Shown here: positions 505-35,103 of the stretch, one piece after another | Layout of the letters: every line of letters begins with the position of its first letter | Numbering within the stretch: the first letter of the stretch is position 1 | Source of the DNA: Syntrophales bacterium | GTDB lineage: Bacteria; Desulfobacterota; Syntrophia; Syntrophales; UBA2210 | DNA: 64,000 nt | Assembly (NCBI GenBank): GCA_963662405.2 | Contig: CAXXKT010000001.1 | Span: 576,001-640,000 of the forward strand | Direction: 5' to 3' | Notes under the pieces: model-generated | The model's input: only the letters and a program-made list of their open reading frames with translations | Database searches by the model: none | What the model was told of the DNA's origin: nothing | Made by a program: the position numbers and the translations under genes

Positions 505-2436
505 TCAGCGGCCACGCATCACCTCTCTATAATATGAGGTGTTCCTGATATTCTCCAGTTCGGGATCGGTCCGTATCAGGTCCCAATTGTCATATCCCTC
601 CTCGACGGCCCTTCTGAGCGCCCCGACCGCTTCTTCCTTCTTCCCCTGCAGCGCATAGGCACAGGCAATGTTATAGGAGGCGACGGGGGCATAATGAGCG
701 TCCAGCCGCCTTGCCGCCGCGTAATGGCCGACGGCCTCTTCATGTCTCCCCTGCCTGAGCAGCCCCCCCCCGAGCCTGAAGTGGGCCTGCGCGTAACCGG
801 GGTCGATACGGACGGCTTCGGCATACTCCCTGACGGCCTCCGCCAGCTCTCCCCGCTTGTCGAGGACAAAGGCCAGGTTGTGATGCGCCACGGCCATATC
901 GGGTTTGAGGCGCAGTGCTTCGCGATATTGTGCGATGGCCTGCTTCGCATCCCCCTGTTCCGCCAGGGCAGTCCCCAGGTTGATGAGCGCCTCCGGATAG
1001 ACCGGCTTGATTCGCAACGCCTCGCGGTACCGGTCGATGGCCTCTTCCTTCTTCCCCTGCAGTGCCAGGGCGTTCCCCAGGTTGACGAGCGCCTCCGGAT
1101 ACGCCGGCCGGATACGCAATGCCTCACGGTACTGCGCCGCGGCCTGTTGCGTGTCGCCCCGTTCATGGAGGGCCGTCCCCAGGTTATTGTGCGCCAAGGA
1201 GTTAGCCGTCGTCACATCGAGGGCGTGCCGGAAGAGGGAGATGTTGTCCTTCCAGTACCCCGCCTGCACCCACGTCACCGCCATCAGAACCGCCAGGACC
1301 GACGAGCCCGCAACGGCAAGCCCACAACGGGGGAGTCGCCAACGGGAAAAAAACGCCGGGATACCCCACGAAATCATCACGAAGATACCGACCAGCGGCA
1401 GGTACGTGTACCGGTCGGCCATCGACTGGCTCCCCACCTGTACCAGACCGATCACCGGAACCAGCGTCCCCAGGTACCACAACCACCCCACCGCCAGGTA
1501 CGGATGTCTCTTTATCGCCCTGATCACCAGATATGATATGACCACGAGAAGAACGCCGGCCATGAGACCCTGCACGAGGGAAACCGCCCGCGGATACGGA
1601 TAGAAAACCGCCAGCTTGTACGGCCAGATCGTCTTCACCAGGTAGCTTATATAGGAAAGCAGGGCATTGGCCGCACGTGCATCCAGGGGAATCGCATCCA
1701 GGGAACTGACCGCCCCGCCGCCACGCTGGACGAAAAAGGTCACGACGCTCGACGCCCCGGAGAGGAGAAGGAGCGGAATCTTCTCCCACACCAGACGAAA
1801 CCACTGACCCCTGACGCCTTCCCGCCGGAGACGCCCCAGGGGCCATATGTCCAGCAGCAGGAGAACAAAGGGCAGCGTCACCACCATCGGCTTGGACATC
1901 AGACCCAGGGCAAAAAAGAGTACAACCGGCAGATACCTGCCGATACCCGGACGCCGCGTATACCGGACGTAGGACCACATCGTCAGGAGCCAGAAAAAGG
2001 CGCTCAGGACATCCTTCCGCTCCGCCACCCATGCCACCGACTCCACGTGCAGAGGGTGAAACGCGAAGAGGGCCGCCACAAAGGCGCTGGACCACAGATC
2101 ACCCGTCATCATCCGGAAAACCGCAAACAGGAGAAGGGTGTTGAAAATATGAAAAAGCAGACTGGTCAGGTGGTGCGCACCCGGATGCAGACCGAACAGG
2201 TGGCAGTCCGCCATGTGGGAAAGCCACGTCAGGGGATGCCAGTTGGCCGCGGCCGTGGCGGTGAAGGCGCGGGAGATGTTCTCCATGGTGATTCCCCCCT
2301 GCACCCACTGATTCCGGGTGACGTAATCGCCGTCATCATAGTAGAGAAATCCGTGATTCCACACCTGCCCGTACACGGCGAGGATACCGATCACCAGCGC
2401 GAGACAGATGGATATTGCCAACCGACGGGGGGACAT
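505..2436 (-). CDS. TMTC-like GT-C membrane glycosyltransferase with C-terminal TPRs (copy A, 643 aa)
   Basis: Acidic YDD after TM1, NWHPLTW, HPLHVESVAWVAERKD and ADRYTYLP motifs, many TM helices. About 5 TPRs plus a terminal YNIACAYALQG...DPELENIR repeat. Confidence 0.85.
   Translation of the reverse strand: MSPRRLAISICLALVIGILAVYGQVWNHGFLYYDDGDYVTRNQWVQGGITMENISRAFTATAAANWHPLTWLSHMADCHLFGLHPGAHHLTSLLFHIFNTLLLFAVFRMMTGDLWSSAFVAALFAFHPLHVESVAWVAERKDVLSAFFWLLTMWSYVRYTRRPGIGRYLPVVLFFALGLMSKPMVVTLPFVLLLLDIWPLGRLRREGVRGQWFRLVWEKIPLLLLSGASSVVTFFVQRGGGAVSSLDAIPLDARAANALLSYISYLVKTIWPYKLAVFYPYPRAVSLVQGLMAGVLLVVISYLVIRAIKRHPYLAVGWLWYLGTLVPVIGLVQVGSQSMADRYTYLPLVGIFVMISWGIPAFFSRWRLPRCGLAVAGSSVLAVLMAVTWVQAGYWKDNISLFRHALDVTTANSLAHNNLGTALHERGDTQQAAAQYREALRIRPAYPEALVNLGNALALQGKKEEAIDRYREALRIKPVYPEALINLGTALAEQGDAKQAIAQYREALRLKPDMAVAHHNLAFVLDKRGELAEAVREYAEAVRIDPGYAQAHFRLGGGLLRQGRHEEAVGHYAAARRLDAHYAPVASYNIACAYALQGKKEEAVGALRRAVEEGYDNWDLIRTDPELENIRNTSYYREVMRGR
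1211..2245. repeat. Membrane-domain block, copy 1 of 3 (~1035 bp)
   Basis: Matches 11007-12041 and 13051-14085. The only difference I saw is a synonymous g/a at 1255. Confidence 0.9.
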
Positions 2437-2438
2437 GG

Positions 2439-3191
2439 CTACCTCAGGGGGGGGAAAAGAGGCGAGGAAATGGTTCCGGCCTTCGCCAGGCGAAAGGCGA
2501 CGGCGGTCCCCAGACAGCCGACCCCGTACCGGATGCTGCGCCCCAGGTTGATGGAGGAGGCCTCATCGAAATATTTCGTCGGACAGCTGACCTCTCCGAT
2601 GACGTAACCGTGCCACAGGACCTGGGCCAGCATCTGATTGTCGAAGACGAAATCGTCGGAATTCTCCTCGAGGGGCAACAGTTCCAGGAGTTCGCGGGAA
2701 AAGGCCCGGTACCCGGTGTGATACTCGGAAAGCTTCGCCCCCAGCAGGATGTTTTCCGCGGCGGTGAGAAACCGGTTTGCGACGTATTTCCAGGGAGGCA
2801 TCCCCCCCTTCAGGGCATACCCTCCCAGTATCCTCGATCCCAGTACACAGGGATAGAGCCCGTTGCCGATCAGTGATACCATGGCGGGGATTAACTGCGG
2901 CGTGTACTGGTAGTCGGGGTGGACCATGATGACGATGTCCCCCCCCTCTTCGAGGGCCAGGCGGTAGCAGGTCTTCTGGTTGGCGCCGTATCCCTTGTTC
3001 CGGGGATGGACATGTACCCTGACATTTGGAAGGGTCCGGGCAATGGCCGCCGTTTCGTCATGACTCGCGTCGTCCACCACGATAACAGAATCGACATAAT
3101 CCTGCTCCATGACTTCCGTATAGGTCCGGAGGACCGTCTGTGCCGCGTTGTAGGCCGGCATGACCACGATCACCTTTTTGTCTCGAAACAT
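2439..3191 (-). CDS. GT2 glycosyltransferase, DPM1-like polyprenol-phosphate sugar synthase
   Basis: VVMPAYN, VDDASHD, NKGYGANQK, HPDYQY and EYHTGYRAF motifs. Confidence 0.85.
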   Translation of the reverse strand: MFRDKKVIVVMPAYNAAQTVLRTYTEVMEQDYVDSVIVVDDASHDETAAIARTLPNVRVHVHPRNKGYGANQKTCYRLALEEGGDIVIMVHPDYQYTPQLIPAMVSLIGNGLYPCVLGSRILGGYALKGGMPPWKYVANRFLTAAENILLGAKLSEYHTGYRAFSRELLELLPLEENSDDFVFDNQMLAQVLWHGYVIGEVSCPTKYFDEASSINLGRSIRYGVGCLGTAVAFRLAKAGTISSPLFPPLR

Positions 3192-3259
3192 GTGTCACTC
3201 CTCTGAAAAAGGAACAGGCCCCTGTCCCCCGTCATACAATAAAGCACCTTATATTCAAA

Positions 3260-4966
3260 TTATTGCCCAATCCCGTCATCAGAACGTCCCTCTCCGGACA
3301 AGGCGGAGCCGCTGTACTCCTTCAGCCGAAACACCGCGACCTGATACGGTGTCCGAGGCGGCCATACGAGGTCCGGCGCCCACTGGTATGTAGCCCCGCC
3401 ACGGTTGATAGAAACCAGGCAGACAGGCGCGTAGTGTTCATCCTGGTACCGCCGGAACCAGTCAAAGACCAGCGTGTGAGAATCGGGACGCTTCATCCAG
3501 GAGGCATAGATGTTGACAAAAACGAGAACGGGCGGCCGGGCCGATTCGACCTGCTGTATCATCTCTTTCTGGATCTGCAAAGCAAAATCGTGGCGTTCCA
3601 TCAGCGGGTACATATAAACATGCCCGCTCGCGGAGCGCCGACCCGTGTAAAAGTATATCTGCGGTTCGGAGCCGATAACGGCAACCCGGTCCCCCTCTTC
3701 CGTGTGGGCCCGGATGTACCGGGCAATATCCAGGGACTCCGGAAAGGGGTTGGATCCGTACGTGGCTCGACAGGCCTGGAGAGGGGTCATCAGGAAGAGG
3801 AAGGAGCGCTGCTGGTAGATCGACACCGCCACGCACACAAGGGCCAGGGCAGCCGGCAGGCCGTAACGGACGGCACTCTTGCGGGCGTTCTTCAGTTTGC
3901 GCGACATACCGCCGATTGCCCCCCCCGCGAGCAGGGCGGCCACCGGGAGGGCCAGGACAAAGTAATGCGGGCGAAAATACAGGCCAGGAGATAACGCGAC
4001 AAGGGAAAAAAGGACGAAGAGCGCGATGAAGACCCGTCGCCGTCGTGACCTCTCGTCCCAGAAAAGGGCGGTCAGGCCGCCAAGAGCAAGCACCCAGAGG
4101 AGGGGAGCCGAGACGACGATGGGCCAGGCACTTCTCGTGAACAAGGGCCACGCCTTCGAAATCGGGATCTGCGAGGCGTATGAACCCGCGCACTCGACCG
4201 TCCAGAACCAGAAGCTTTCAAAGCCCCCGGCCAATGCCATAATAATGCAGGTCAAGGCGTAGGGCAGTACCGCTCCTGCACCAAAAAACGCGCATCCCGA
4301 TAGGACATGGCCCGGCTCCACCGGTCTTACGCGCAACCGGTCGATGATCAGATACAGGGCACCCAGCACGACAAAGGCGGCGCTGTGCTGCTTGATAATA
4401 AAGCCGGTGCCAAGGAGCAGACCGCCCCAGAAGAGCGGCCACGGCCGATCTTCATCAAGCCCTCGCAGGAGAAAAAGCAAACCGCCGATTGCCGGGAGGA
4501 CCACGAAATGTTCCGCGTTGGCGAAGACACCCTGAACCGACTGGCCGACCGACAGGACGGCAAAAACCGCCCCGGCCGCAGCTCCCGCCAAGGGATCAAA
4601 AAGTCGCCTTCCCAGAAGAAAGAGGACTATGATCGTGGCGATATTGACAACCAGGAGCCCCAGATGGATGCCGGCATGTGTCTGTCCGAACAACACCATG
4701 ATGCCTGCATAGGCAACGTAGATCCCCGGCAGTTTCATGCTGTAGAGACCCTGGTAGGGGAGAACCCCCTGCAACAGGAGTTGCCCGCCGTAGGCGTACT
4801 CCCCTTCGTCGCGCTCCAGAGGAACATCCAGAAGGCCCCAGCGTAACACAATCGACAGGAGCACCGCCGCCGCCAGCAGGGTGGACCATATCCATCGATA
4901 CCTGACAGATCGATCATCCGGCTGTTTTGGAATTGATTTTTTCTTTTTCATCTCAGGCGACTTCAC
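3260..4966 (-). CDS. ArnT/PMT-like GT-C membrane glycosyltransferase
   Basis: LERDEGEY acidic motif after TM1, KLPG motif, ~11 TM helices and a C-terminal periplasmic domain (EPQIYFY). The start may be the ATG ~15 bp downstream. Confidence 0.75.
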   Translation of the reverse strand: MKSPEMKKKKSIPKQPDDRSVRYRWIWSTLLAAAVLLSIVLRWGLLDVPLERDEGEYAYGGQLLLQGVLPYQGLYSMKLPGIYVAYAGIMVLFGQTHAGIHLGLLVVNIATIIVLFLLGRRLFDPLAGAAAGAVFAVLSVGQSVQGVFANAEHFVVLPAIGGLLFLLRGLDEDRPWPLFWGGLLLGTGFIIKQHSAAFVVLGALYLIIDRLRVRPVEPGHVLSGCAFFGAGAVLPYALTCIIMALAGGFESFWFWTVECAGSYASQIPISKAWPLFTRSAWPIVVSAPLLWVLALGGLTALFWDERSRRRRVFIALFVLFSLVALSPGLYFRPHYFVLALPVAALLAGGAIGGMSRKLKNARKSAVRYGLPAALALVCVAVSIYQQRSFLFLMTPLQACRATYGSNPFPESLDIARYIRAHTEEGDRVAVIGSEPQIYFYTGRRSASGHVYMYPLMERHDFALQIQKEMIQQVESARPPVLVFVNIYASWMKRPDSHTLVFDWFRRYQDEHYAPVCLVSINRGGATYQWAPDLVWPPRTPYQVAVFRLKEYSGSALSGEGRSDDGIGQ

Positions 4967-5018
4967 GTATCACCTTGACGGGTTCAACAGTCATTTTGTC
5001 ATCTATGCAATGCGTTAT

Positions 5019-5429
5019 TCATGCCTTAAACACCAAATATTTCGTGGCGCCAAAGTTCATGAGTGTAATGACGGCCATGACACATAGCCATATTACATTG
5101 ATATTCCAGTTCAGATGTTCATGAGCAATGCTTAAAGAAAAGGCGCTCAAAAAAAGTAATGTCACTTGTACTGTGACAAATGGGATAAATGCATCCCGTC
5201 CGTGTCTTGTCCGTGAAAATGTCCAGTTCTTGTTCCAGATAAAACTCCAGAGGATCCCGGCGGCATAGCTCAGACACTGAGATACGAACGCATCACCATA
5301 CAAAACGAATCCATATACAACGAAAAATACAGCATAACTAACGATGGCATTGGAAATACCGACGATAATAAACTTGAATAATTGGAAATTAACCAGTCCT
5401 TCCCGTACTCTTTTGATCATGAACCTCAC
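5019..5429 (-). CDS. gtrA: GtrA-family lipid-linked sugar flippase
   Basis: Small 4-TM protein with KFIIVG, SFIWNKNWTF and KYLVF motifs. Confidence 0.85.
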   Translation of the reverse strand: MRFMIKRVREGLVNFQLFKFIIVGISNAIVSYAVFFVVYGFVLYGDAFVSQCLSYAAGILWSFIWNKNWTFSRTRHGRDAFIPFVTVQVTLLFLSAFSLSIAHEHLNWNINVIWLCVMAVITLMNFGATKYLVFKA

Positions 5430-6354
5430 TCATTATAAATCTCGGCCGGTTTTGGAGTGCCACATGAATTCGTGCCAAGTAAGTCCCTATGATACCCAAG
5501 ACAATAAACAACACACCAAATAAAAATGATATTATCCCGACGGTAGAAGCCCAACCGGGGACAGTTTGTCCAATCGAAAACCGAAATAATATATAAACCA
5601 GCTCCAGAAAAGCTAACACACTTGTGAGAACACCAATCCATACCCCCAGCACAAGCGGTTTTGTGGAGAATGAAATTATAGAACCGCTGCCAAACTTAAC
5701 CATCTTGGATACAGTATATTTTGATCTTCCCGAAAATCTCGCACCAGCCGCATATGAAAGAGTGACTGATGGAAAACCGAGCCATTCAACGGCTCCTCGT
5801 AAAAATAAATCAACATCTTTTAGCTGTAACAACTGATCCAAGACAGATCTGTCGATCAACCTGAAATCTGATGACCCTGGAACCACCTGAACACCTGTAG
5901 CAAATGAAAATAATTTGTAGAAAATCCAAGAAGTCTTTCTCTTAAAAAAAGAATTTACGTTCCTATCATTTCGGAACGTATTGACGACAGAGGCCCCTTT
6001 CTCATAACTTGCAAGCATTTGAGGGATCAGCGACGGGGGATGTTGTAAATCTCCATCCATAGAAATTATTGCCTTCCCGCTGGCACGATTTAATCCTGCA
6101 AGCAACGCATGTTGATGACCAAAATTCCGGGCTAGTCTGATACCCGTAATAGACGAGTTTACATTTGCTGCCTCTTTTATCTTGGCCCAGGTTTGATCAC
6201 GGCTACCGTCATCAACCAGAATAATCTCATAACTCACACCTAGATTTTGAAGATTATCCTCCAAATCCTTCAACAAAACGTCTATATTACCCTCTTCATT
6301 GAATAAGGGGATAACAACAGACAAGTAAATGTTTTCTTTAATTACACCATCCAT
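5389..6354 (-). CDS. gtrB: GtrB-like undecaprenyl-phosphate glycosyltransferase (GT2)
   Basis: VVIPLFNEE, VDDGSRD, RNFGHQ, DGDLQHPP and SDFRLIDR motifs, two C-terminal TM helices, adjacent to gtrA. Confidence 0.85.
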   Translation of the reverse strand: MDGVIKENIYLSVVIPLFNEEGNIDVLLKDLEDNLQNLGVSYEIILVDDGSRDQTWAKIKEAANVNSSITGIRLARNFGHQHALLAGLNRASGKAIISMDGDLQHPPSLIPQMLASYEKGASVVNTFRNDRNVNSFFKRKTSWIFYKLFSFATGVQVVPGSSDFRLIDRSVLDQLLQLKDVDLFLRGAVEWLGFPSVTLSYAAGARFSGRSKYTVSKMVKFGSGSIISFSTKPLVLGVWIGVLTSVLAFLELVYILFRFSIGQTVPGWASTVGIISFLFGVLFIVLGIIGTYLARIHVALQNRPRFIMSEVHDQKSTGRTG

Positions 6355-6482
6355 CTCCTACACCCCCATAAAAAAAAACGGCGTGTGAGTCAAAGAACAC
6401 CCAAAAGGAATCATCAAACAGCTACGCATTAAAGATGTCATGGGGGGTTTTTGTCCCACCCTATTCGTTGGCACTCTCTTCA

Positions 6483-8195
6483 CTATAACCGCCAGCCCTG
6501 TATCACCAGAAGGGGCACATTTTCAAATTTATTGACAGCTCCATCAATAGGTATTTGAATCTGCCGCAGTGTTTCTCCGTGCATCCGGAGCGCATATCCC
6601 GCTTGACGGGACCAAGTCCTCTGATAAGCATCCTCACTCCAACCGTACGGCGAATGTGGTGCAGGTGCAATGGTTCCGGGTGTTCCCCCCTGCCGCGGAA
6701 AAGCCAGGCCACCAACCAACCACACCCGATTCCCTTCTTTCAGCGTTCGGAGCATACCTTCAACGACCGGCCTGATCGGTTCATTCTGCATCATCAGGTC
6801 TTTCAAAAGGTCATAACGATGATAAGCATGGTCCTCCATATCAGGCAATGTGACCCATCTCGTTGATCCTTTGTAATAGCGATCAAAGGTAACTCCGCAA
6901 TAAAACGGAAAGACCACTATGAGATCATCTTTTTCCGCAATCGATCCCAGCTTTGCAGCAATGAGGTCAATGTTCGTTTTGCGTTCATGAGCGACATTCC
7001 ATGAGCCGGTGAAAACGAATGCCGCAACCACGGCGATAGAGACGACTCGCATATACCGACCTATCGTTTTCTTTTTACAAACCACATCGGTCATCTTATC
7101 GACGATGACGGCAAGTACCACCATGAGGGGCAGGTAGTACCAGACCTGCGTCGGGTAAGACAATATCCGAATAAATGTTCCGTATGAAACGATACCGACC
7201 AGCATCGTGACCAGTAGGAATAACATCATCTCCTTGTGGTCCTCGGACGGGCTCCGCGAAGAGAAGCACAGTTCCCGGATAAACACAACAACGGCGGACA
7301 GGATCAGGAATAACCAGAGCCATGAAATGAAAAAATCTGCAGGATCGATTGCGTGCCCGAATTTACCGATGATCCAGGAAAGAGACATCGGCATTTTTAC
7401 AATGACATTCCATGCCGCTGTTTTGGTTGCAATGGTGTAGTAAGGTGCCACGGACAACGCGGCTATCGCACCGACCCCGAGGGGAAAGAGAACGAGTTTC
7501 CACCGACGGCGGTACAGGCCGACCGCCGCCCCTCCGACGCACAGCGCAAAGAGCAGAAAGGCATTATGGTATAGGCACTGAACACTCAGAACGGCGATCA
7601 CCAGGCTTGTGAGCATCTTTCGGGGGACCGGATCTTCGATGGCCCGCCACAGGGCGCCCATGGTCAGCAGTATGAGGATGACGCCCAGACCGTAGGCTCG
7701 CAGTGTATCACCCCACAAGATCGTCGGACAGAGGGCAATAAGGACGAGGGATACCAGGGGAAACCGCACCTCCAGGTTGCGCCCTACAAGCCATAAGGAA
7801 CCCGCAATCCCGAGGCCAATGATCAATCCCAGCACCCGCAGGGCAAGGTCCGTCTCTCCGAATCCGAGACTAATCCACCCCCGGAGGACCAGGAACCAGA
7901 GGATGGGATAAGATTCAAATCGCATCTTATCCGAAAAAGCAGAAAAGCTAGACAGCATGCTGGTGTTGAGGGTATTGGCTTCATCGCGCCAGAGCCCTCC
8001 GGAATGAAGAAGGACGACGACATGCAGTACCACCGCACCGATCAGTATCACGGCAAAGACGCCGAGTTCTACCCACCCGATGACACCTCTCCCTGATGAT
8101 GAAGTCGTACCCGTAGTGAGCGTATCGACTGGTGGTGAAACATCTGTATGCGAAGACGGATGAGGATCATTGGCGTTCTTGAGCCTTTTAGCCAT
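6483..8195 (-). CDS. Putative GT-C membrane glycosyltransferase (paralog E)
   Basis: LWRDE acidic motif after TM1, LALRV and LRAYGL motifs, many TM helices, soluble C-terminal domain. Confidence 0.6.
   Translation of the reverse strand: MAKRLKNANDPHPSSHTDVSPPVDTLTTGTTSSSGRGVIGWVELGVFAVILIGAVVLHVVVLLHSGGLWRDEANTLNTSMLSSFSAFSDKMRFESYPILWFLVLRGWISLGFGETDLALRVLGLIIGLGIAGSLWLVGRNLEVRFPLVSLVLIALCPTILWGDTLRAYGLGVILILLTMGALWRAIEDPVPRKMLTSLVIAVLSVQCLYHNAFLLFALCVGGAAVGLYRRRWKLVLFPLGVGAIAALSVAPYYTIATKTAAWNVIVKMPMSLSWIIGKFGHAIDPADFFISWLWLFLILSAVVVFIRELCFSSRSPSEDHKEMMLFLLVTMLVGIVSYGTFIRILSYPTQVWYYLPLMVVLAVIVDKMTDVVCKKKTIGRYMRVVSIAVVAAFVFTGSWNVAHERKTNIDLIAAKLGSIAEKDDLIVVFPFYCGVTFDRYYKGSTRWVTLPDMEDHAYHRYDLLKDLMMQNEPIRPVVEGMLRTLKEGNRVWLVGGLAFPRQGGTPGTIAPAPHSPYGWSEDAYQRTWSRQAGYALRMHGETLRQIQIPIDGAVNKFENVPLLVIQGWRL
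7450..7907. repeat. Identical block shared by paralogs E and F (copy 1)
   Basis: Matches 9279-9736 (offset 1829). Further near-identical patches lie at ~6868-7200 and ~7979-8081 at the same offset. Confidence 0.85.
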
Positions 8196-8311
8196 CGGGT
8201 AACCCTCTTGTGGATTGATCTGCCTTCATGTCTGTATTGTGCGCTCCTTCCCTCTTTTCAACGAGACACCTCCGGGATCGCTTCCGTTGCAGATGAGCCA
8301 ACCATTCAGGA

Positions 8312-9994
8312 TCATGATCGTCGACCTGTGACCACAAAGAGAGAAATATCCTCAAATGGTTGGACAGGACCCATGGCGGGGACTTCGACTGTCCTCAACA
8401 TCTCAGCATGAGACTGAAGGGTATATCCCGCCTTCCGAACCCAGTTCTTCTGGTACGCATATTCATCCCACCCGTAGGGTGAATGCGGCGCCGGCGGGAG
8501 GTCTGCGGGAACTTCACCCCACCGTAAAAAAACCAACCGACCGACCCACCACACCCGGTTTCCCCGTTTCAGCGTCTGAAGAATCTCTTCAACGACCGGC
8601 CCGATAGGGTCAACCTGCCTCATTTTATCCTTAAAGATGTCATAGCGATGGAACTGATGGTCGCCCAGATCCGGCAATGTGACCCACCGAGTTGCACCTT
8701 TGTAATAGCGATCAAAGGTAACTCCGTAATAAAACGGAAAGACCACTATGAAATCATCTTTTTCCGCAATCGACCCCAGCTTTGCAGCAATGAGGTCAAT
8801 GTTCGTTTTGCGTTCATGAGCGACATTCCATGAGCCTGCGAAGACAAATGCCGCAACCACGGCGATAGAGACGACTCGCATATACCGACCTATCGTTTTC
8901 TTTTTACAAACCACATCGGTCATCTTATCGACGATGACGGCAAGTACCACCATGAGGGGCAGGTAGTACCAGACCTGCGTCGGGTAAGACAATATCCGAA
9001 TAAACGTTCCGTACGAAACGATACCGACCGACATGGAAACCAGCAGAAAGAGCATCAGATCTGCTCGCTCCCCGGTCCGGCCCCGGGATGATGAAACCAG
9101 CGCCCGGGCAAAAACAAAAACGGCGAAAAGGAGCAAGAAGGACCACAGCACCCACAGAAACAAATCCGAAGGATCGACGGCCTGCCGGAACTTGCTGAGG
9201 ATCTGGGGAATCGATATCGGTTGCTGTATGACAATATTCCATGTCCATGTCTCAACTACGATCACAAAATAGGGCACTACGGACAACGCGGCTATCGCAC
9301 CGACCCCGAGGGGAAAGAGAACGAGTTTCCACCGACGGCGGTACAGGCCGACCGCCGCCCCTCCGACGCACAGCGCAAAGAGCAGAAAGGCATTATGGTA
9401 TAGGCACTGAACACTCAGAACGGCGATCACCAGGCTTGTGAGCATCTTTCGGGGGACCGGATCTTCGATGGCCCGCCACAGGGCGCCCATGGTCAGCAGT
9501 ATGAGGATGACGCCCAGACCGTAGGCTCGCAGTGTATCACCCCACAAGATCGTCGGACAGAGGGCAATAAGGACGAGGGATACCAGGGGAAACCGCACCT
9601 CCAGGTTGCGCCCTACAAGCCATAAGGAACCCGCAATCCCGAGGCCAATGATCAATCCCAGCACCCGCAGGGCAAGGTCCGTCTCTCCGAATCCGAGACT
9701 AATCCACCCCCGGAGGACCAGGAACCAGAGGATGGGGAATCCCTCAAATTGCATCTTGCTCCATACATCTGAAAGGGTAGGGAGCGTGCCGGTGTTGAGT
9801 GTGCCGACTTCATCGCGCCAGAGCCCTCCGGAATGAAGAAGGACGACGACATGCAGGGCCACCACGCCGATCAGTATCACGGCAAAGACGCCGAGTTCTA
9901 CCCACCCGATCGTTTTGTTCCTGTCGGATGGAGATTCTCCGGTCATCGAATCGGCTGACGGTGTAACGTATTGATCAGGCTGGTAAAGTCTCAA
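8312..9994 (-). CDS. Putative GT-C membrane glycosyltransferase (paralog F)
   Basis: Tandem paralog of 6483-8195 with LWRDE motif. TTG start abuts the upstream stop; an alternative ATG lies at 9946. Confidence 0.6.
   Translation of the reverse strand: MRLYQPDQYVTPSADSMTGESPSDRNKTIGWVELGVFAVILIGVVALHVVVLLHSGGLWRDEVGTLNTGTLPTLSDVWSKMQFEGFPILWFLVLRGWISLGFGETDLALRVLGLIIGLGIAGSLWLVGRNLEVRFPLVSLVLIALCPTILWGDTLRAYGLGVILILLTMGALWRAIEDPVPRKMLTSLVIAVLSVQCLYHNAFLLFALCVGGAAVGLYRRRWKLVLFPLGVGAIAALSVVPYFVIVVETWTWNIVIQQPISIPQILSKFRQAVDPSDLFLWVLWSFLLLFAVFVFARALVSSSRGRTGERADLMLFLLVSMSVGIVSYGTFIRILSYPTQVWYYLPLMVVLAVIVDKMTDVVCKKKTIGRYMRVVSIAVVAAFVFAGSWNVAHERKTNIDLIAAKLGSIAEKDDFIVVFPFYYGVTFDRYYKGATRWVTLPDLGDHQFHRYDIFKDKMRQVDPIGPVVEEILQTLKRGNRVWWVGRLVFLRWGEVPADLPPAPHSPYGWDEYAYQKNWVRKAGYTLQSHAEMLRTVEVPAMGPVQPFEDISLFVVTGRRS
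9279..9736. repeat. Identical block shared by paralogs E and F (copy 2)
   Basis: Matches 7450-7907. Confidence 0.85.
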
Positions 9995-12232
9995 CTATCT
10001 TCCTTCAATGATTGATTTATATCGTGTGGTGCCCCGGATATCGTCGAGATCGGTATCGGTCCGGATACGATCCCAGTCGTCGAATCCCGCATCGACGGCC
10101 CGCTTCAGCCACTCCGCAGATTCCTCACCTCTCCCCTCACGGGCGTGCGTGCGGGCGATGTCATAGGAGACACGGGCCTCAAGGGCCGGCTCCCGGCGCA
10201 TCACCTCCTCGAAACCGGTGATGGCCCCGGCATACTCACCCATGATGTACAGGGCCAGGGCAAGGTTGTAGCGCGCCTTGTGGTTTCCGGAGTCGATCTC
10301 AAGCGACGCCCGGTACTCCGCCACCGCCTCGTCCATCTTTCCCTGTCGGGATAGGGCAAGACCGAGATTATAGCGGGCACTTCCGTCTTCGGGATCTATC
10401 CGGACCGCTTCCCTGAACTGCCGAACGGCACCCGCCAGATTCCCCAGACGGGAGAGAACAACACCGAAGCTCATCCGAAGTCCTATGCTTTCGTGGGCCG
10501 ATTTCAACACTTCGCCGTAACACCGCGACGCCAGGGAGAGATTTCCCACCCTCACCAAGACTCTCGAGAGGTTGGCGCGCGCCTCGGGATTGTCGGGATC
10601 TATCACGAGCGCCTCCGTGTAGCGATCCGCCGCACCTTCGAGCCCCCCCCGGGTCTCAAGAATACCGCCAATATTGTTGAGCGCCATTGCGTTTTGCGGG
10701 TCCAGCCGGAGGACTTGGCGAAAATGCAGGAAGGCACCATCAATATCTCCCTGCTGTAGCAGGATTACGCCCAGATTGTGGTGGGCCTTCGAAATATCGG
10801 GGTTGATGCGCAGCGCCTCACGATATTGTTCCACGGCCTTCGTTGTATCACCCTGTCGTGCGAACGCATTCCCCAGGTTGACATGCCCTTTCGCAAAACG
10901 GGGCACGATGCGTAATACTTCACGATACTGTTCTATGGCCTTTCCTGTATCCCCCTGCTCATGAAGGGCTATCCCCAGATTATTATGCGCAAGGTAATTA
11001 TGGGTTGTCACATCGAGGGCGTGCCGGAAGAGGGAGATGTTGTCCTTCCAATACCCCGCCTGCACCCACGTCACCGCCATCAGAACCGCCAGGACCGACG
11101 AGCCCGCAACGGCAAGCCCACAACGGGGGAGTCGCCAACGGGAAAAAAACGCCGGGATACCCCACGAAATCATCACGAAGATACCGACCAGCGGCAGGTA
11201 CGTGTACCGGTCGGCCATCGACTGGCTCCCCACCTGTACCAGACCGATCACCGGAACCAGCGTCCCCAGGTACCACAACCACCCCACCGCCAGGTACGGA
11301 TGTCTCTTTATCGCCCTGATCACCAGATATGATATGACCACGAGAAGAACGCCGGCCATGAGACCCTGCACGAGGGAAACCGCCCGCGGATACGGATAGA
11401 AAACCGCCAGCTTGTACGGCCAGATCGTCTTCACCAGGTAGCTTATATAGGAAAGCAGGGCATTGGCCGCACGTGCATCCAGGGGAATCGCATCCAGGGA
11501 ACTGACCGCCCCGCCGCCACGCTGGACGAAAAAGGTCACGACGCTCGACGCCCCGGAGAGGAGAAGGAGCGGAATCTTCTCCCACACCAGACGAAACCAC
11601 TGACCCCTGACGCCTTCCCGCCGGAGACGCCCCAGGGGCCATATGTCCAGCAGCAGGAGAACAAAGGGCAGCGTCACCACCATCGGCTTGGACATCAGAC
11701 CCAGGGCAAAAAAGAGTACAACCGGCAGATACCTGCCGATACCCGGACGCCGCGTATACCGGACGTAGGACCACATCGTCAGGAGCCAGAAAAAGGCGCT
11801 CAGGACATCCTTCCGCTCCGCCACCCATGCCACCGACTCCACGTGCAGAGGGTGAAACGCGAAGAGGGCCGCCACAAAGGCGCTGGACCACAGATCACCC
11901 GTCATCATCCGGAAAACCGCAAACAGGAGAAGGGTGTTGAAAATATGAAAAAGCAGACTGGTCAGGTGGTGCGCACCCGGATGCAGACCGAACAGGTGGC
12001 AGTCCGCCATGTGGGAAAGCCACGTCAGGGGATGCCAGTTGTAAGCCTCCGTGGCGGTGAAGGCGCGGGAGATGTTCTCCATAGCAAGCCCCCCTTGCAC
12101 CCACGGATTCTCGGTGACATATTGCGTATCATCATAGTTGATGAAGTCGTGATTCCATACCTGCCCGTACACGGCGAGGATACCGACCACCAGCACGATG
12201 CAGATGTATAGCTCCACCCGACGGGTTCGCAT
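9995..12232 (-). CDS. TMTC-like GT-C glycosyltransferase with TPRs (copy B, 745 aa)
   Basis: Same membrane domain as copy A (NYDD motif), with a longer TPR tail. Confidence 0.85.
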   Translation of the reverse strand: MRTRRVELYICIVLVVGILAVYGQVWNHDFINYDDTQYVTENPWVQGGLAMENISRAFTATEAYNWHPLTWLSHMADCHLFGLHPGAHHLTSLLFHIFNTLLLFAVFRMMTGDLWSSAFVAALFAFHPLHVESVAWVAERKDVLSAFFWLLTMWSYVRYTRRPGIGRYLPVVLFFALGLMSKPMVVTLPFVLLLLDIWPLGRLRREGVRGQWFRLVWEKIPLLLLSGASSVVTFFVQRGGGAVSSLDAIPLDARAANALLSYISYLVKTIWPYKLAVFYPYPRAVSLVQGLMAGVLLVVISYLVIRAIKRHPYLAVGWLWYLGTLVPVIGLVQVGSQSMADRYTYLPLVGIFVMISWGIPAFFSRWRLPRCGLAVAGSSVLAVLMAVTWVQAGYWKDNISLFRHALDVTTHNYLAHNNLGIALHEQGDTGKAIEQYREVLRIVPRFAKGHVNLGNAFARQGDTTKAVEQYREALRINPDISKAHHNLGVILLQQGDIDGAFLHFRQVLRLDPQNAMALNNIGGILETRGGLEGAADRYTEALVIDPDNPEARANLSRVLVRVGNLSLASRCYGEVLKSAHESIGLRMSFGVVLSRLGNLAGAVRQFREAVRIDPEDGSARYNLGLALSRQGKMDEAVAEYRASLEIDSGNHKARYNLALALYIMGEYAGAITGFEEVMRREPALEARVSYDIARTHAREGRGEESAEWLKRAVDAGFDDWDRIRTDTDLDDIRGTTRYKSIIEGR

Positions 12233-12713
12233 GGGCGTCTTTCTAGCGTCCCTCCATCAGTAGTTTATACCCTGCCGTATCCCGGACAACGTCGAGGGCG
12301 CCATCGGTCCGGATACGATCCCAGTCTTTGAATCCCGCATCAACGGCCCGCTTTAACCACGCCACCGATTCCGTTCCCCTCCCCGCACGGGCGTGCGCGC
12401 GGGCAATGTCGTAGGAGGCACGAACCTCCAAGGCCGGCTCCCGGAGCATCACCTCCTCAAAACAAACAATGGCTCCGGTATAATCGCCTTCGACGTACAG
12501 GGCCAGGCCGAGGTTGTAGCGCGCCTTGTGATTCTCGGGGTCGATCTCCAGCGATGCACGGTACTCCGCCGCCGCCTCGTCCATCTTCCCCTGCTTGGAG
12601 AGGGCCAAACCGAGGTTGTAGCGCGCACTTCCGTCTTCGGGATTTATCCGGACCGCCTCGCGGAACTGCCGGACCGCCCCCTCCTGATCCCCTAAACGGG
12701 AAAGAACAACACC
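11003..12713. repeat. 1711-bp direct repeat, unit 1 (period 2044 bp)
   Basis: Matches 13047-14757. The only mismatch I saw is 12618 g vs 14662 a. Spans the 5' part of gene B, the 10-bp spacer and the 3' part of gene C. Confidence 0.9.
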
Positions 12714-14276
12714 AAGGGATCCGCGTATTTCACCATTTTCCGGATCTATTCGCAGGGCTGTGGTGTAGTACCGCTTTGCGCCCTCAAGATTGCCTTCCTT
12801 CTTGAGACAGTTCGCCAGCCTGTAATGCGCAGCAGCATGGCCGGGATCGAGCCGCAAGGCTTCACGGTACTGTTCCACGGCCTTCGTTGTATCACCCTGC
12901 CGTGCGAATGCATTCCCCAGGTTGACGAACACCTCCGGGTATGTCGGCCGGATACGCAATGCCTCACGGTACTGGACCGCGGCCTGTTGTGTTTCGCCCC
13001 GCTCATACAGCGCTACTCCGAGATTATTGTGAGCCACGTGGTTATCGGTTGTCACATCGAGGGCGTGCCGGAAGAGGGAGATGTTGTCCTTCCAATACCC
13101 CGCCTGCACCCACGTCACCGCCATCAGAACCGCCAGGACCGACGAGCCCGCAACGGCAAGCCCACAACGGGGGAGTCGCCAACGGGAAAAAAACGCCGGG
13201 ATACCCCACGAAATCATCACGAAGATACCGACCAGCGGCAGGTACGTGTACCGGTCGGCCATCGACTGGCTCCCCACCTGTACCAGACCGATCACCGGAA
13301 CCAGCGTCCCCAGGTACCACAACCACCCCACCGCCAGGTACGGATGTCTCTTTATCGCCCTGATCACCAGATATGATATGACCACGAGAAGAACGCCGGC
13401 CATGAGACCCTGCACGAGGGAAACCGCCCGCGGATACGGATAGAAAACCGCCAGCTTGTACGGCCAGATCGTCTTCACCAGGTAGCTTATATAGGAAAGC
13501 AGGGCATTGGCCGCACGTGCATCCAGGGGAATCGCATCCAGGGAACTGACCGCCCCGCCGCCACGCTGGACGAAAAAGGTCACGACGCTCGACGCCCCGG
13601 AGAGGAGAAGGAGCGGAATCTTCTCCCACACCAGACGAAACCACTGACCCCTGACGCCTTCCCGCCGGAGACGCCCCAGGGGCCATATGTCCAGCAGCAG
13701 GAGAACAAAGGGCAGCGTCACCACCATCGGCTTGGACATCAGACCCAGGGCAAAAAAGAGTACAACCGGCAGATACCTGCCGATACCCGGACGCCGCGTA
13801 TACCGGACGTAGGACCACATCGTCAGGAGCCAGAAAAAGGCGCTCAGGACATCCTTCCGCTCCGCCACCCATGCCACCGACTCCACGTGCAGAGGGTGAA
13901 ACGCGAAGAGGGCCGCCACAAAGGCGCTGGACCACAGATCACCCGTCATCATCCGGAAAACCGCAAACAGGAGAAGGGTGTTGAAAATATGAAAAAGCAG
14001 ACTGGTCAGGTGGTGCGCACCCGGATGCAGACCGAACAGGTGGCAGTCCGCCATGTGGGAAAGCCACGTCAGGGGATGCCAGTTGTAAGCCTCCGTGGCG
14101 GTGAAGGCGCGGGAGATGTTCTCCATAGCAAGCCCCCCTTGCACCCACGGATTCTCGGTGACATATTGCGTATCATCATAGTTGATGAAGTCGTGATTCC
14201 ATACCTGCCCGTACACGGCGAGGATACCGACCACCAGCACGATGCAGATGTATAGCTCCACCCGACGGGTTCGCAT
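12243..14276 (-). CDS. TMTC-like GT-C glycosyltransferase with TPRs (copy C, 677 aa, mosaic)
   Basis: N-terminal ~410 aa are identical to copy B; the C-terminal ~156 aa are identical to gene D. Confidence 0.85.
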   Translation of the reverse strand: MRTRRVELYICIVLVVGILAVYGQVWNHDFINYDDTQYVTENPWVQGGLAMENISRAFTATEAYNWHPLTWLSHMADCHLFGLHPGAHHLTSLLFHIFNTLLLFAVFRMMTGDLWSSAFVAALFAFHPLHVESVAWVAERKDVLSAFFWLLTMWSYVRYTRRPGIGRYLPVVLFFALGLMSKPMVVTLPFVLLLLDIWPLGRLRREGVRGQWFRLVWEKIPLLLLSGASSVVTFFVQRGGGAVSSLDAIPLDARAANALLSYISYLVKTIWPYKLAVFYPYPRAVSLVQGLMAGVLLVVISYLVIRAIKRHPYLAVGWLWYLGTLVPVIGLVQVGSQSMADRYTYLPLVGIFVMISWGIPAFFSRWRLPRCGLAVAGSSVLAVLMAVTWVQAGYWKDNISLFRHALDVTTDNHVAHNNLGVALYERGETQQAAVQYREALRIRPTYPEVFVNLGNAFARQGDTTKAVEQYREALRLDPGHAAAHYRLANCLKKEGNLEGAKRYYTTALRIDPENGEIRGSLGVVLSRLGDQEGAVRQFREAVRINPEDGSARYNLGLALSKQGKMDEAAAEYRASLEIDPENHKARYNLGLALYVEGDYTGAIVCFEEVMLREPALEVRASYDIARAHARAGRGTESVAWLKRAVDAGFKDWDRIRTDGALDVVRDTAGYKLLMEGR

Positions 14277-14757
14277 GGGCGTCTTTCTAGCGTCCCTCCA
14301 TCAGTAGTTTATACCCTGCCGTATCCCGGACAACGTCGAGGGCGCCATCGGTCCGGATACGATCCCAGTCTTTGAATCCCGCATCAACGGCCCGCTTTAA
14401 CCACGCCACCGATTCCGTTCCCCTCCCCGCACGGGCGTGCGCGCGGGCAATGTCGTAGGAGGCACGAACCTCCAAGGCCGGCTCCCGGAGCATCACCTCC
14501 TCAAAACAAACAATGGCTCCGGTATAATCGCCTTCGACGTACAGGGCCAGGCCGAGGTTGTAGCGCGCCTTGTGATTCTCGGGGTCGATCTCCAGCGATG
14601 CACGGTACTCCGCCGCCGCCTCGTCCATCTTCCCCTGCTTGGAGAGGGCCAAACCGAGGTTATAGCGCGCACTTCCGTCTTCGGGATTTATCCGGACCGC
14701 CTCGCGGAACTGCCGGACCGCCCCCTCCTGATCCCCTAAACGGGAAAGAACAACACC
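13047..14757. repeat. 1711-bp direct repeat, unit 2
   Basis: Matches 11003-12713. Spans the 5' part of gene C and the 3' part of gene D. Confidence 0.9.
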
Positions 14758-16815
14758 GAAGTCCATGTGAAGTTCCGTATCTCCGGGGACCGATTTCAGT
14801 ACTGTACCGTAACAGCGCGACGCCAAGGCGGGATCGCGCGCCTTTCCCATAACCCTCGACAGGTTCGTGCGCGCCTCGGGATTGCCGGGGTTTATCACAA
14901 GCGCCTCCGTATAGCGAATCGCCGCGCTTTCAAGATCCCCCCTCATCTCAAGGATACCTCCGAGGTTGTTGCGGGCCTCATCATTTTCAGGATCCAGCCG
15001 AACCGCCTTGCTGAGATATGCGAAGGCGCGATCCGTATCCCCCCGTTGGAGGAGAGCGATCCCCAGCATGTTGTGGGCATTCGCGTTTTGAGGATCTGCC
15101 CGAAGCACCTCACGGTAGTACGACAGCACTTTTTCAGGATTACCCTGTTTTGTGAGAAGATTCGCCAAGCCGGTACGCGAAGGCGTATAGCGGGGATCGA
15201 TCCGCAACGCCTCCCGGTAGGCGGAAATTGCCTTCCGTATCTCTCCCTGCTTTTCGTACACAACTCCCCTGTTATGGTGTACCTTAGCACTGTCCGGGTT
15301 GGAGCGCAGTATGTGGGTATAGATCCGCATGGCCTCATCGTAGCGTCCTCGGGCGCCCAAGGCGTTTCCCAGATTGAGGGCCGCCCGGGGATTCCGAGGG
15401 GCCTTCTTCAGGACATCGGTCCACAGGGTCAGATCATCCTGCCACACCCGATTCCTCAGGTAGGTCGCCGTCCCCAGGGCAGCAACAATGAATACACAGA
15501 TAAAAACGGCGAGGGCGCGCCGCTTCGGGAAAAAGCGGAAGGGAAGCCAGGCGACGAAAAGCGCGAAGCCGAAGAGGGGGAGGTACATCCGGTGCTCGAA
15601 CAGGGCGTCGCTGATGGGGATAATACTCGACTCCACGGAAAGGGTCACAAAAAACCAGAAGAGGGCGAAGGTGAAAAGGGGCGTGGCTTTGCGCTTCCAC
15701 AACGCGAGGACCGCAAGCCCGGCCAAAAAGGCGAAGGCGAGGGGAGTGAGCCCATCGCAGAACCCTGTTTTGAAGGGATAGTAATAATCCAGGTTCTGCC
15801 CCACGGGAAAGATCATCAGACGCAAATAGATCACCAGAACGGTGAACTGGGTGAACAGGTAGCTCCATCGGCTCACCAGCTCCGTCTCCCGCGAAAGACG
15901 GGAGATGTCTTCCAGCATGTCTCCGATCCCTCCCCCGAACAGACCCACGGCGTAGAGGACAAATGCCACGAAGAGGCCGCAGACCGGTATCACCCACAGG
16001 AGCCTTTTCCCCCACTCTCTCCTGGTACCTCCGAAACAGATTACTTCGACCAGGATGACGGCGAGGGGGAGACTGGCCGCGCTCTGCTTGCTCAGAAAAG
16101 CCAGGGTACTGAAGATAAAGGTGAGGGCGAAGAAGAGTGAGGAGTAAGGAGTGAGGGGTGAGGAGTTGGAATCTCTGGATAAAGTTCTCCCCTTAATATA
16201 GAAGAGGACCGCCCCCAGGTAGAAAAAAGCCGCCAGAGAGGTGTAGCGTTGCGCGATATAGGTGACCGCCTGGGTCTGAAGCGGGTGAGCAACAAAAATG
16301 AGGGCCGCGAAGAGGGCTATGAGGTGCATGGGAAGAGATACCGGATCACCTGCCCCGGCCTTTCCTTCACCGATTTCCGTGGAGCCTGGGGGGAAAGCCG
16401 GCCCTTGCCCCGCGGGAACTCTGGCCTGCGGGAACTTCTGTAATCGTGTTCCACCCGGCACAACAGTGAGCCGGCCCAACAAAGCCAATGACAGAAAGTA
16501 GACCATGAAACCGTTCGCGCTGTGGATCAGGATATTGACCACGTGATACCCAAAGACGTCGAGTTCCCCGAGCCGGTAATTGAGGGCGAAGGTGAAATTG
16601 GCAACCGCCCGCGGGCCCAGAAACTTCTTCGGAGAGGAAAAGTTGGCAAGATCCCTGATCTGCATGTTCTCTTGAATAGTGTGCGAGTCGTCAAGTGCGA
16701 AGGGGACATGCAGGCTGTTGCTGTAGACCGCGAAGGAAACGGAGGCGATGATGATCAGGAAGAGAGGGGACAAGCCCTTCCCTTTTACATTAAAAGATTT
16801 CATATCCACACCCAT
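14287..16815 (-). CDS. TMTC-like GT-C glycosyltransferase with TPRs (gene D, 842 aa, distinct membrane domain)
   Basis: FALDD, HPLQTQAVTYIAQR and FEHRMYLP motifs, a Pro/Gly-rich loop insertion and a long TPR tail. Confidence 0.85.
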   Translation of the reverse strand: MGVDMKSFNVKGKGLSPLFLIIIASVSFAVYSNSLHVPFALDDSHTIQENMQIRDLANFSSPKKFLGPRAVANFTFALNYRLGELDVFGYHVVNILIHSANGFMVYFLSLALLGRLTVVPGGTRLQKFPQARVPAGQGPAFPPGSTEIGEGKAGAGDPVSLPMHLIALFAALIFVAHPLQTQAVTYIAQRYTSLAAFFYLGAVLFYIKGRTLSRDSNSSPLTPYSSLFFALTFIFSTLAFLSKQSAASLPLAVILVEVICFGGTRREWGKRLLWVIPVCGLFVAFVLYAVGLFGGGIGDMLEDISRLSRETELVSRWSYLFTQFTVLVIYLRLMIFPVGQNLDYYYPFKTGFCDGLTPLAFAFLAGLAVLALWKRKATPLFTFALFWFFVTLSVESSIIPISDALFEHRMYLPLFGFALFVAWLPFRFFPKRRALAVFICVFIVAALGTATYLRNRVWQDDLTLWTDVLKKAPRNPRAALNLGNALGARGRYDEAMRIYTHILRSNPDSAKVHHNRGVVYEKQGEIRKAISAYREALRIDPRYTPSRTGLANLLTKQGNPEKVLSYYREVLRADPQNANAHNMLGIALLQRGDTDRAFAYLSKAVRLDPENDEARNNLGGILEMRGDLESAAIRYTEALVINPGNPEARTNLSRVMGKARDPALASRCYGTVLKSVPGDTELHMDFGVVLSRLGDQEGAVRQFREAVRINPEDGSARYNLGLALSKQGKMDEAAAEYRASLEIDPENHKARYNLGLALYVEGDYTGAIVCFEEVMLREPALEVRASYDIARAHARAGRGTESVAWLKRAVDAGFKDWDRIRTDGALDVVRDTAGYKLLMEGR

Positions 16816-16893: not shown

Positions 16894-17949
16894 CTATAGC
16901 AATCCTCCCGCCTTTGCCTTTTTGATGACGATCATGGAATAGGCGATCTGAAAAAAGAGGTAGGGAATAAAAATCAACACCCTTTTATCCCCATAGATAT
17001 GCACCATCCAACAGGCGCCGAGTCCTTGGATAATACCGACGATAAAGTAAAATACGCTGACCTGCGTATGACTATATCCCAGTCCCACACACAACTGGTA
17101 CAGATGGGTTCGATGTGCGCGCAAGACATTTTCTCTGCGCAGAAAACGCCTGAAAAACGTAAAAACCGTGTCATAAATAAAGTGAAACAACAGGAGGGGC
17201 ATGACAAAGAATGAGGTATGAGAGTGATCATAGAGGGCAGCGATGATGGCCAAAGTGGCAAAGACAAATCCTAAAAACGTGCTCCCGACATCGCCCATGA
17301 AGAGGCTCGCTCTCGGGAAATTGAAGACAAGAAAACCCAGAGCGCCGGCGACGATTACATAACTCAAGATATAGGCGAAGTTGCTTCCCTGCGTCAAGCT
17401 GATGATACCGAAAAATCCCCCGGCGATGACCGCCGTACCCGCGGCAAGCCCGTTGATTCCGTCCATAAAATTATAGGCATTGGTCAATCCGATAATCCAT
17501 AAAAAGGTGATTGCATACTTTGAAAGCCCTAAATACGCCATCCCATCCAGCGGGACGTGAAACTCCGATATCACTACCCCGAAAGCCATAACACAGGTGG
17601 TTGCAATCGCCTGAATACCGAAACGAAAGAAAAGCGAATTTCCTTTGAGATCATCATGGAAAGAAATAATCGAGACCATCAGGGCTGAGGAGACAAAACC
17701 GGCGAAATACAGCTCTCGAATCATGGTGACATCGGCAAGCAGGTATACAGCGAGTATGCCGACAAGAAAGGTCCCCACGATGGCAATTCCGCCGGCCTTG
17801 GGAACCGGAACCGAATGGGAAGAGCGGTCATTCGGGATATCCATAATACGCCATCGGGTGATCAGAGACTTGCATATCCCGTACGAGAGCAGGAACAGGA
17901 AGGCGCCAAAACAAAGATGTATGAGAAAAAAAGAGATCTTCATTATCAC
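16894..17949 (-). CDS. MraY/WecA-family polyprenyl-phosphate HexNAc-1-phosphate transferase (WbpL-like)
   Basis: DIPNDRSSH..P.PKAGG, NAYNFMDGINGLA, FMGDVGS and AHRTHLYQ motifs. Confidence 0.9.
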   Translation of the reverse strand: MIMKISFFLIHLCFGAFLFLLSYGICKSLITRWRIMDIPNDRSSHSVPVPKAGGIAIVGTFLVGILAVYLLADVTMIRELYFAGFVSSALMVSIISFHDDLKGNSLFFRFGIQAIATTCVMAFGVVISEFHVPLDGMAYLGLSKYAITFLWIIGLTNAYNFMDGINGLAAGTAVIAGGFFGIISLTQGSNFAYILSYVIVAGALGFLVFNFPRASLFMGDVGSTFLGFVFATLAIIAALYDHSHTSFFVMPLLLFHFIYDTVFTFFRRFLRRENVLRAHRTHLYQLCVGLGYSHTQVSVFYFIVGIIQGLGACWMVHIYGDKRVLIFIPYLFFQIAYSMIVIKKAKAGGLL

Positions 17950-18112
17950 GTATATTCACAAGTTTTGTCGGAACACCCAACAAGAGAGATGCCAGCCGGT
18001 CATCGAACATCCCGGCTGTGCTTTTTTAGAAGAACACGGCCGTGAACGAAGGCTTCTCGCCACCTCCGGGACAGCGGTCTCCTTTTTATCACGAACATCC
18101 AACGATGAACAT

Positions 18113-18137
18113 AAAAAAAGAGGCCTCGATCGGCCTC
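18113..18137 (-). terminator. Intrinsic terminator downstream of the dehydratase gene
   Basis: Minus strand reads GAGGCC-GATCGA-GGCCTC followed by a T run. Confidence 0.55.
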
Positions 18138-18327
18138 CCCATGAGGGGCGAAGCCTTCTTTCTCCCACACCCGTTTCCGACCCGAGGGCCAGCCCGCGGA
18201 TCCGGGAGCGAGGAAATCCGCCCGTGGTTCCACATACGGCCCTCAGCCGTTGGATGATGCGATGAAGGAAACCTCCGGTCCTGAAGTTTTACCCCTGCGA
18301 CATATGCCACCGTGTAAAAGAGGCGTC

Positions 18328-23664: not shown

Positions 23665-23911
23665 TGGTGTATCTCCTCCTATCGTCTTGTGTACGGAAGG
23701 ATCATGCTTGATGGTATCATTCTCCCGCGTCGGATCCCGCATAAGGCCGAATGCCATCACCCTGATCGATCAGGTACCGGTGATCGGGCACAGGCACAAG
23801 GCAGAGGAACGGACCTTCATCGTGCCTCAGTCATCTGTTTTTCCAAGCACCTCTCCGAGGGTCATCCCCTGTATCACGAAAAAACTCGTCCCGTTCATCC
23901 GAGCAGCCGCC

Positions 23912-35101: not shown

Positions 35102-35103
35102 GC

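Follow-up and report, generated by a model that had tools for sequence, protein, structure and literature searches.

Why should neighbouring genes be letter-identical over one part of their length and clearly different over the rest? The question is raised by four adjacent or nearby genes, A to D, in a 64,000-nucleotide stretch of DNA from a Syntrophales bacterium (assembly GCA_963662405.2, contig CAXXKT010000001.1, positions 576,001 to 640,000), here called the window. All four are on the minus strand and intact, encoding proteins of 643 (A), 745 (B), 677 (C) and 842 (D) amino acids with a predicted membrane domain, or head, followed by a tail of tetratricopeptide repeats (TPRs). Our conclusion is that this is a real tandem array of predicted glycosyltransferases of the GT-C class with TPR tails, and that its identical stretches probably come from recent, repeated recombination among neighbours (gene conversion or unequal crossing-over); that is, concerted evolution starting in the core and stopping at the diverged parts.

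Sequence comparison bore out the coordinates, the open reading frames and the block of about 1035 bp described in a first-pass annotation of the same DNA. The three copies of the block (1211-2245 in A, 11007-12041 in B and 13051-14085 in C; 1,035 nt) differ at a single base, between A and B/C, and this is synonymous (Tyr codon 394). Identity stops at codon 409 (A/B and A/C) or codon 410 (B/C) and TPR1 begins at 413, in agreement with the earlier statement that it ends just before the first TPR. Among four-fold degenerate sites, 1 of 214 differs between A and B within the block versus 13 of 44 in the flanks (Fisher p=2e-10), so the A/B identity is not due to chance; a second exact-tract test gave 0/88 versus 17/64 differing sites. 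Exact tracts with diverged flanks, synonymous sites included, are the pattern by which concerted evolution is recognized.

From the start codon on, B and C agree at every base for 1,230 nt; the C tail has a single mismatch with the D tail over 471 nt, and both repeat copies have the same 10-nt spacer. The head common to B and C and the tail common to C and D together form one direct repeat of 1,711 nt (11003-12713 = 13047-14757; period 2,044) that spans gene borders, and a single event can therefore account for both. By comparison with B/C, A differs at 40 nt in codons 2-64, the part with the Asp-Asp (DD) motif; the A-specific residues checked there (11 positions) vary across the family, and invariant residues are retained. 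The 'fixed catalytic domain' proposed previously is thus exact for B and C only, as the block that A has in common with them does not include the DD loop.

Full TPR units number five in A, eight in B, six in C and nine in D, each array being followed by a 61-amino-acid end cap (NCBIfam TPR_END_plus above cut-off). The length gaps of 34 and 102 amino acids among A, B and C correspond to whole 34-residue units, as had been noted. TPR position 6 is Asn in 4/5 (A), 7/8 (B), 4/6 (C) and 6/9 (D) units; Asn at this position is a trait of peptide-binding TPR grooves. The A-type and D-type heads are only 26% identical, yet the DNA identity of the tails is 77% for B/D and 99.8% for C/D, which upholds the description of D as having another membrane domain with a tail shared with B and C. 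Judged by these identities, the head-tail swapping is real, B and C each being an A-type head joined to a D-type tail. Unit relationships were taken from pairwise identity: TPR1 of C is 79% like unit 1 of A, TPR2 of C combines a half like A2 with a half like B2, and TPR3 of C is its own. Units 4-9 of B match units 5-10 of D at 72-83%, which reflects an older exchange. Elsewhere in the genome (3.8 Mb in 3 contigs) there is no further copy of the array DNA and one further gene of this kind, a fifth, distant D-type GT-C/TPR gene (L002:8839-11286) about 30% identical to the D head.

The same mosaic was found in two TPR-less neighbours, F and G, which share exact tracts of 458 and 158 nt and are diverged at residues 72-95, at residues 250-334 and in the C-terminal part. 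In this pair it is membrane stretches that are identical and loops that have diverged. F and G have no Pfam or NCBIfam match, and F has no detectable homology with the A/D head profile (probability 0.2%); its WRDE motif is presumably ArnT-like. The pattern is therefore not specific to TPR genes, nor is it peculiar to this genome, being shared by 8 of 18 multi-copy loci elsewhere. Relatives of the A-type head form 76,007 clusters at 50% identity, ranging over Desulfobacterota, Planctomycetota, Verrucomicrobiota and Acidobacteriota. A match was present in 22/40 related genomes, with up to 16 per genome, and 23 of 74 loci of other genomes hold at least two such genes. Exact tracts of at least 45 nt were surveyed in 110 A-type genes trimmed to the domain start, with D-type genes left out. 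Head tracts occurred at 8/18 multi-copy A-type loci (longest 534) and tail tracts at 4/18; by comparison, no head tract was found in 5,931 between-locus pairs. Among D-type genes, a neighbouring pair in a closed genome (G030) has an exact tract of 614 nt. The four-fold-site statistics, the F/G mosaic and these tracts in other genomes support the recombination origin that had been proposed. In two other sequences (L040:7528-10895, from genome G039, and P0004), a frame of more than 1,000 amino acids seems to hold two tandem GT-C heads, which suggests fused GT-C paralogs.

The distribution of tracts bears on whether the array is instead a selected modular system, in which a uniform catalytic core is combined with TPR tails (perhaps also the DD-motif loop) held apart by selection, each gene glycosylating different exported proteins. 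The identity of B and C spans the entire head and stops three codons before TPR1, long tracts elsewhere favour heads (at least 100 nt in 5/64 pairs, versus 0/64 for tails), and all four genes are intact; in addition, the TPR region of human TMEM260 is reported to suffice for acceptor recruitment (bioRxiv 10.64898/2026.03.17.711096). However, sharp borders are expected wherever homology drops, and the TPR-less F and G behave alike. Further, C and D share a distal tail under unrelated heads and 9/64 pairs elsewhere have tail tracts of at least 45 nt, indicating that tails are homogenized too. We consider such selection unlikely, though worth taking seriously. Under concerted evolution, exchange would begin in the conserved membrane core, where the copies are most alike, and would halt at diverged loops and tails; as exchange follows the likeness of the copies, 'same head, different tail' would be mostly a by-product, which would nonetheless make new head-tail combinations.

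An assembly or polishing artefact, which the first-pass annotation had named as fatal to its proposal, was not borne out and is very improbable. In run X1, possibly the source sample, contigs end at the repeat borders (1240, 13051, 14097 and 14728/14757) and the repeat contigs have depths of 8.8 and 7.2 versus 3.3-4.8 in five flanking unique contigs. A sixth unique contig, at 6.3, fits an artefact better, as does the collapsed X1 contig, which disagrees with the window at the lone differing base by carrying the A base joined to the B/C start; this codon-394 difference could stem from a popped bubble, a strain variant or an error. Contigs of other studies (marine sediment, oil facility) cross the junctions from B TPR1 to the block (X3, 10773-11050), from tail to head (X3, X8), from D-unique sequence to tail (X3, X8) and from the C tail to the C-unique TPRs (X5). 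An artefact is unlikely because the B, C and D junctions are present in these independent contigs; the same pattern in other assemblies also speaks against it.

Strains were compared in 6 of the 11 listed runs, with X2, X4, X7, X10 and X11 left out; no RNA data set was listed as carrying this DNA. Against the window, contigs of related strains show differences of approximately 1-2.5% (e.g. 4/368, 5/286, 7/369 and 5/283), whereas paralogs within the window are 0.1-0.2% apart and so closer to each other than to related strains, as far as short, low-depth contigs tell. Paralogs closer than sister-strain orthologs are a signature of concerted evolution, and we regard this as supporting, not decisive. 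At 7/7 listed tail sites where strains depart from the shared C/D base, the strain base is that of B, which makes the bases common to C and D look derived, as if copied once the strains had diverged; the alternative of conversion from B in the other strains fits as well, and it too is exchange. At one base of the head block, four runs from three studies differ from all three window copies. One X3 contig carries a head at the B/C position with 24 differences in 375 nt, at which 5 of 12 listed head sites match A, an observation that favours a selected modular system. Related strains carry the same head-tail junctions, and no new one was seen among the matches listed, which counts against that system. 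The 'shuffled TPR tails' of the first-pass annotation therefore stand as regards the discordance of head and tail, but shuffling between these strains finds no support in those matches.

What the array might do was approached through its predicted fold. An AlphaFold2 model of A was built from 94 sequences (mean predicted local distance difference test score, pLDDT, 89.9) and used at full length in a wide structural search. Residues 1-422 matched AglB (3waj) with Z 18.3 over 319 residues and a root-mean-square deviation (rmsd) of 4.9, followed by Pmt2 (6p2r, Z 18.1), Pmt4 (9e61, 17.5), human OST-B (6s7t, 16.7), ArnT (5f15, 16.4) and ALG12 (16.1); over all six GT-C proteins 317-349 residues were aligned at Z 16-18 and rmsd 4.6-5.2. 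The membrane domain of A is therefore predicted to have the multi-pass GT-C fold, as first suggested, and the Pfam family PMT_2 was found above its cut-off of 26.1 bits in A, B and C (31-32.5 bits). D has no Pfam GT-C family match; its head aligns to that of A with DD, HP, R and K retained and lies near the same Atlas clusters. In the 94-sequence alignment D34 is conserved in 94/94 and D35 in 92/94, forming the acidic motif in the first external loop (DD is also aligned in D), and R140, D142, K182 and R342 in 94/94. Searching the PDB by sequence gave no match for the head, whether alone or as a profile of 10 members, and only TPR proteins among the best 60 of 443 for a full-length profile.

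The order of GT-C domain and TPR array is that of the animal TMTC proteins. Motifs were placed by eye against Table 4 of PMC7801869, without a TMTC alignment. In the A type, M1 (DD), M3 (RxD) and M7 (ERxxY) have counterparts in DD34-35, R140-K-D142 and D341-R-x-x-Y345; at M2 (SHKSYRP) and M6 (PxxP) it has NWHP and TLVP, keeping only the last Pro. The D type has KQ and DY at M4 and M5. TMTC_DUF1736 (PF08409) did not match the A or D heads up to E 10, was absent from the best 25 of 27 families for 10 aligned members, and was not above cut-off anywhere in the genome; no TMTC or TMEM260 chain was among the best 50 structural matches of the A model. With no DUF1736 and two TMTC acidic residues missing, A-D are by these sequence tests TMTC-like in layout and do not pass as TMTC members.

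TPR-directed protein glycosylation by the array is plausible. The glycosyltransferase family 2 (GT2) enzyme beside A would load a sugar on polyprenyl phosphate, the GtrA-type protein would flip the lipid-sugar, and the GT-C domains would transfer the sugar on the periplasmic side via the DD motif; the most likely acceptors would be surface proteins that are exported and bound in the TPR groove, a scheme drawn from GT-C chemistry and TMEM260. The only PDB match of this GT2 (2439-3191) was dolichol-phosphate-mannose synthase (DPMS, 5mlz; E 1e-8), a weak resemblance. Orthologs 72-77% identical occurred in 13/40 relatives: 11 of the 13 with a strong A-type match (at most 10 kb away in 8 of these 11), versus 2/27 others, the relatives not being independent kin. 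None of 7 same-genus genomes searched had a strong A-type match or this GT2.

The setting would also suit GT-C transferases with a lipid or surface-polysaccharide acceptor, as in ArnT and GtrABC side-chain systems, the TPRs being scaffolds of envelope complexes. The locus has GtrA-type, GtrB/ArnC-like, WecA-like GT4, PglF-type dehydratase, amino-sugar and MBOAT acyltransferase genes, and ArnT and ALG12 lie close to the protein transferases in the structural search. Nevertheless, the top GT-C matches (AglB, Pmt2 and Pmt4) are protein glycosyltransferases, by a small margin, the head-plus-TPR layout is that of TMTC and TMEM260, and E, F and G could instead serve the Gtr-like genes. This alternative is improbable.

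Several points weigh against concerted evolution in a protein-glycosylating array. No read or contig covers the whole array, which also leaves room for an artefact; the strain evidence consists of short contigs of depth 2-6, and the listed sites favour those common to several runs. Ten of the 18 multi-copy loci have no membrane-domain tract. A neutral origin is our interpretation, and selection keeping the tails distinct would give the same pattern. As regards function, M4 (KE(T/Q)xxT) and M5 (DW), the proposed TMTC metal ligands, are replaced in the A type by K182-P183 (P in 92/94) and V277-F278. A GT2 ortholog was present at 5/74 loci of other lineages, so the donor link is not general. The acceptors of the array are candidates only: a secreted 392-amino-acid protein downstream of A was considered as a conserved acceptor and rejected as a general partner, with matches in 2/40 relatives, one of which has a strong A-type gene.

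The features of the locus are listed below. It lies amid genes for surface glycans, namely two GT2s, a GtrA-type protein, the other membrane proteins E, F and G, a WecA-like GT4, a PglF-type dehydratase and genes for amino sugars. Named top protein matches are from Desulfobacteraceae and other Deltaproteobacteria.

Features of the glycosyltransferase array and adjoining genes (window positions)
Feature	Position	Strand	Description
Gene A	505..2436	-	GT-C membrane domain (amino acids 1-412, predicted), 5 TPRs, TPR end cap; own version of codons 2-64
Homogenized block, A copy (codons 64-409)	1211..2245	-	Found by sequence comparison
GT2 enzyme	2439..3191	-	Pfam Glycos_transf_2; candidate polyprenyl-phosphate sugar synthase (putative donor maker)
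Gene E	3260..4966	-	Lone PMT_2-type GT-C protein without TPR; 48 bits versus cut-off 26.1
GtrA-type small membrane protein	5019..5429	-	Candidate flippase for lipid-sugar donor
Second GT2, GtrB/ArnC/PgfS-like	5389..6354	-	Second candidate donor synthase; best PgfS 234 bits, below cut-off 500
Gene F	6483..8195	-	TPR-less membrane protein; WRDE motif after first helix; mosaic with G
Gene G	8312..9994	-	F paralog; exact tracts of 458 and 158 nt with F, divergence between
Gene B	9995..12232	-	A-type GT-C head, 8 TPRs; distal tail D-related (77% DNA identity over 799 nt)
Direct repeat copy 1	11003..12713		B head, 10-nt spacer and C tail
Gene C	12243..14276	-	Chimera: B-identical head, A/B-mosaic TPR1-2, own TPR3, D-identical tail
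Direct repeat copy 2	13047..14757		C head, spacer and D tail; 1 mismatch with copy 1
Gene D	14287..16815	-	Divergent D-type GT-C-like head (26% identical to A type), 9 TPRs

Upstream of the array, window positions 16894-25003 encode a WecA-like GT4, a PglF-type dehydratase, a DegT-type aminotransferase, a fused oxidoreductase-acetyltransferase and an epimerase, a set that we take to resemble a diacetamido-uronic acid pathway. Further upstream on the same strand (32801-43847) is a type II secretion cluster, with GspD and GspE above cut-off and GspF just below. Downstream of A, outside the window and on the same strand (L001:4812-18194), are three secreted proteins, namely a CAP-domain protein, the Cys-rich 392-amino-acid protein mentioned above and an 823-amino-acid transglutaminase-elicitor-like protein that has repeated domains; they are followed by an MBOAT acyltransferase and another membrane protein, of 557 amino acids, with an ADE motif. 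Unlinked to the array, candidate acceptors are a cadherin-domain protein, a TIG-domain protein and six PEP-CTERM proteins. The first of these (G000:C1:1791484-1795968) is large, secreted and 24% Ser/Thr, lies beside a PEP-CTERM gene and has a C-terminal sorting-type tail that is presumably IPTL-CTERM-like. The Cadherin_4, Cadherin_5 and Big_9 families are absent from the genome. On the same contig, G000:C1, a region of several kilobases is present in four scattered copies that are 91-97% identical (approximately 250-264, 1957-1970, 2351-2360 and 2651-2665 kb), along with many perfect repeats of 0.7-1.9 kb that resemble insertion sequences.

The value of the locus lies in its family, whose bacterial GT-C/TPR proteins number in the tens of thousands, with no experimentally tested function found for them in the literature. 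The locus lends itself to testing: the heads of B and C are letter-identical whereas their TPR tails are not, A combines that core with a first loop of its own, and a candidate donor synthase lies next door. Should the tails prove to choose the acceptor, this would be a new bacterial route of glycosylation, would bear on the origin of animal TMTCs and would offer a retargetable enzyme. In the widest form of this idea, periplasmic protein O-glycosylation would be widespread in bacteria, recombination keeping the GT-C core uniform while selection separates the DD loop and TPR tail, each paralog marking a separate set of Ig- or cadherin-like surface proteins; the pair B and C would then offer a natural experiment in how TPRs direct the choice of acceptor, and a model of how animal TMTCs arose. 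We hold this only as a rather doubtful prospect. No published work on the function, arrays or conversion of bacterial GT-C/TPR proteins was found, in a search outside which most subscription papers fell.

That tandem paralogs evolve in concert, through gene conversion or unequal crossing-over, is ordinary in many bacteria. The array is like such cases in its patchy exact tracts, in copies that are closer within the genome than between strains and in its chimeric genes; all copies are intact, and no dedicated recombinase or silent cassette was noticed, although none was searched for. As to the enzymes, animal TMTC1-4 (CAZy GT105) are dolichol-phosphate-mannose-dependent (Dol-P-Man) protein O-mannosyltransferases of cadherins (PMC7801869, PMC11292533). 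Like them, the array joins a GT-C domain to a TPR series of varying length, and it has DD in its first loop, RxD, the K of KExxT and D/E-R-x-x-Y (PMC7801869). Unlike them, as they are described there, it lacks a DUF1736 match, its A type has P for the E of KE, no DW and NWHP for SHKSYRP, and its copies are tandem mosaics. The same source reports full-length TMTC-like proteins in many uncharacterized prokaryotes, e.g. a Deltaproteobacteria bacterium (PMC7801869, Eisenhaber); by description these share the architecture and lineage range, whereas the text available of that paper says nothing of arrays, conversion tracts or a linked donor synthase. The earlier remark that no such array was described in bacteria therefore stands for arrays, as far as the search reached, but not for the proteins. 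TMEM260 (GT117) likewise combines a GT-C core with TPRs and is an experimental precedent for TPR-based acceptor recruitment; it differs in having a Rossmann-like domain between core and TPR, of which the A model has none (bioRxiv 10.64898/2026.03.17.711096). By these comparisons neither the family nor the recombination process is new; the mosaic is ordinary and the locus is an unusually clean example of it.

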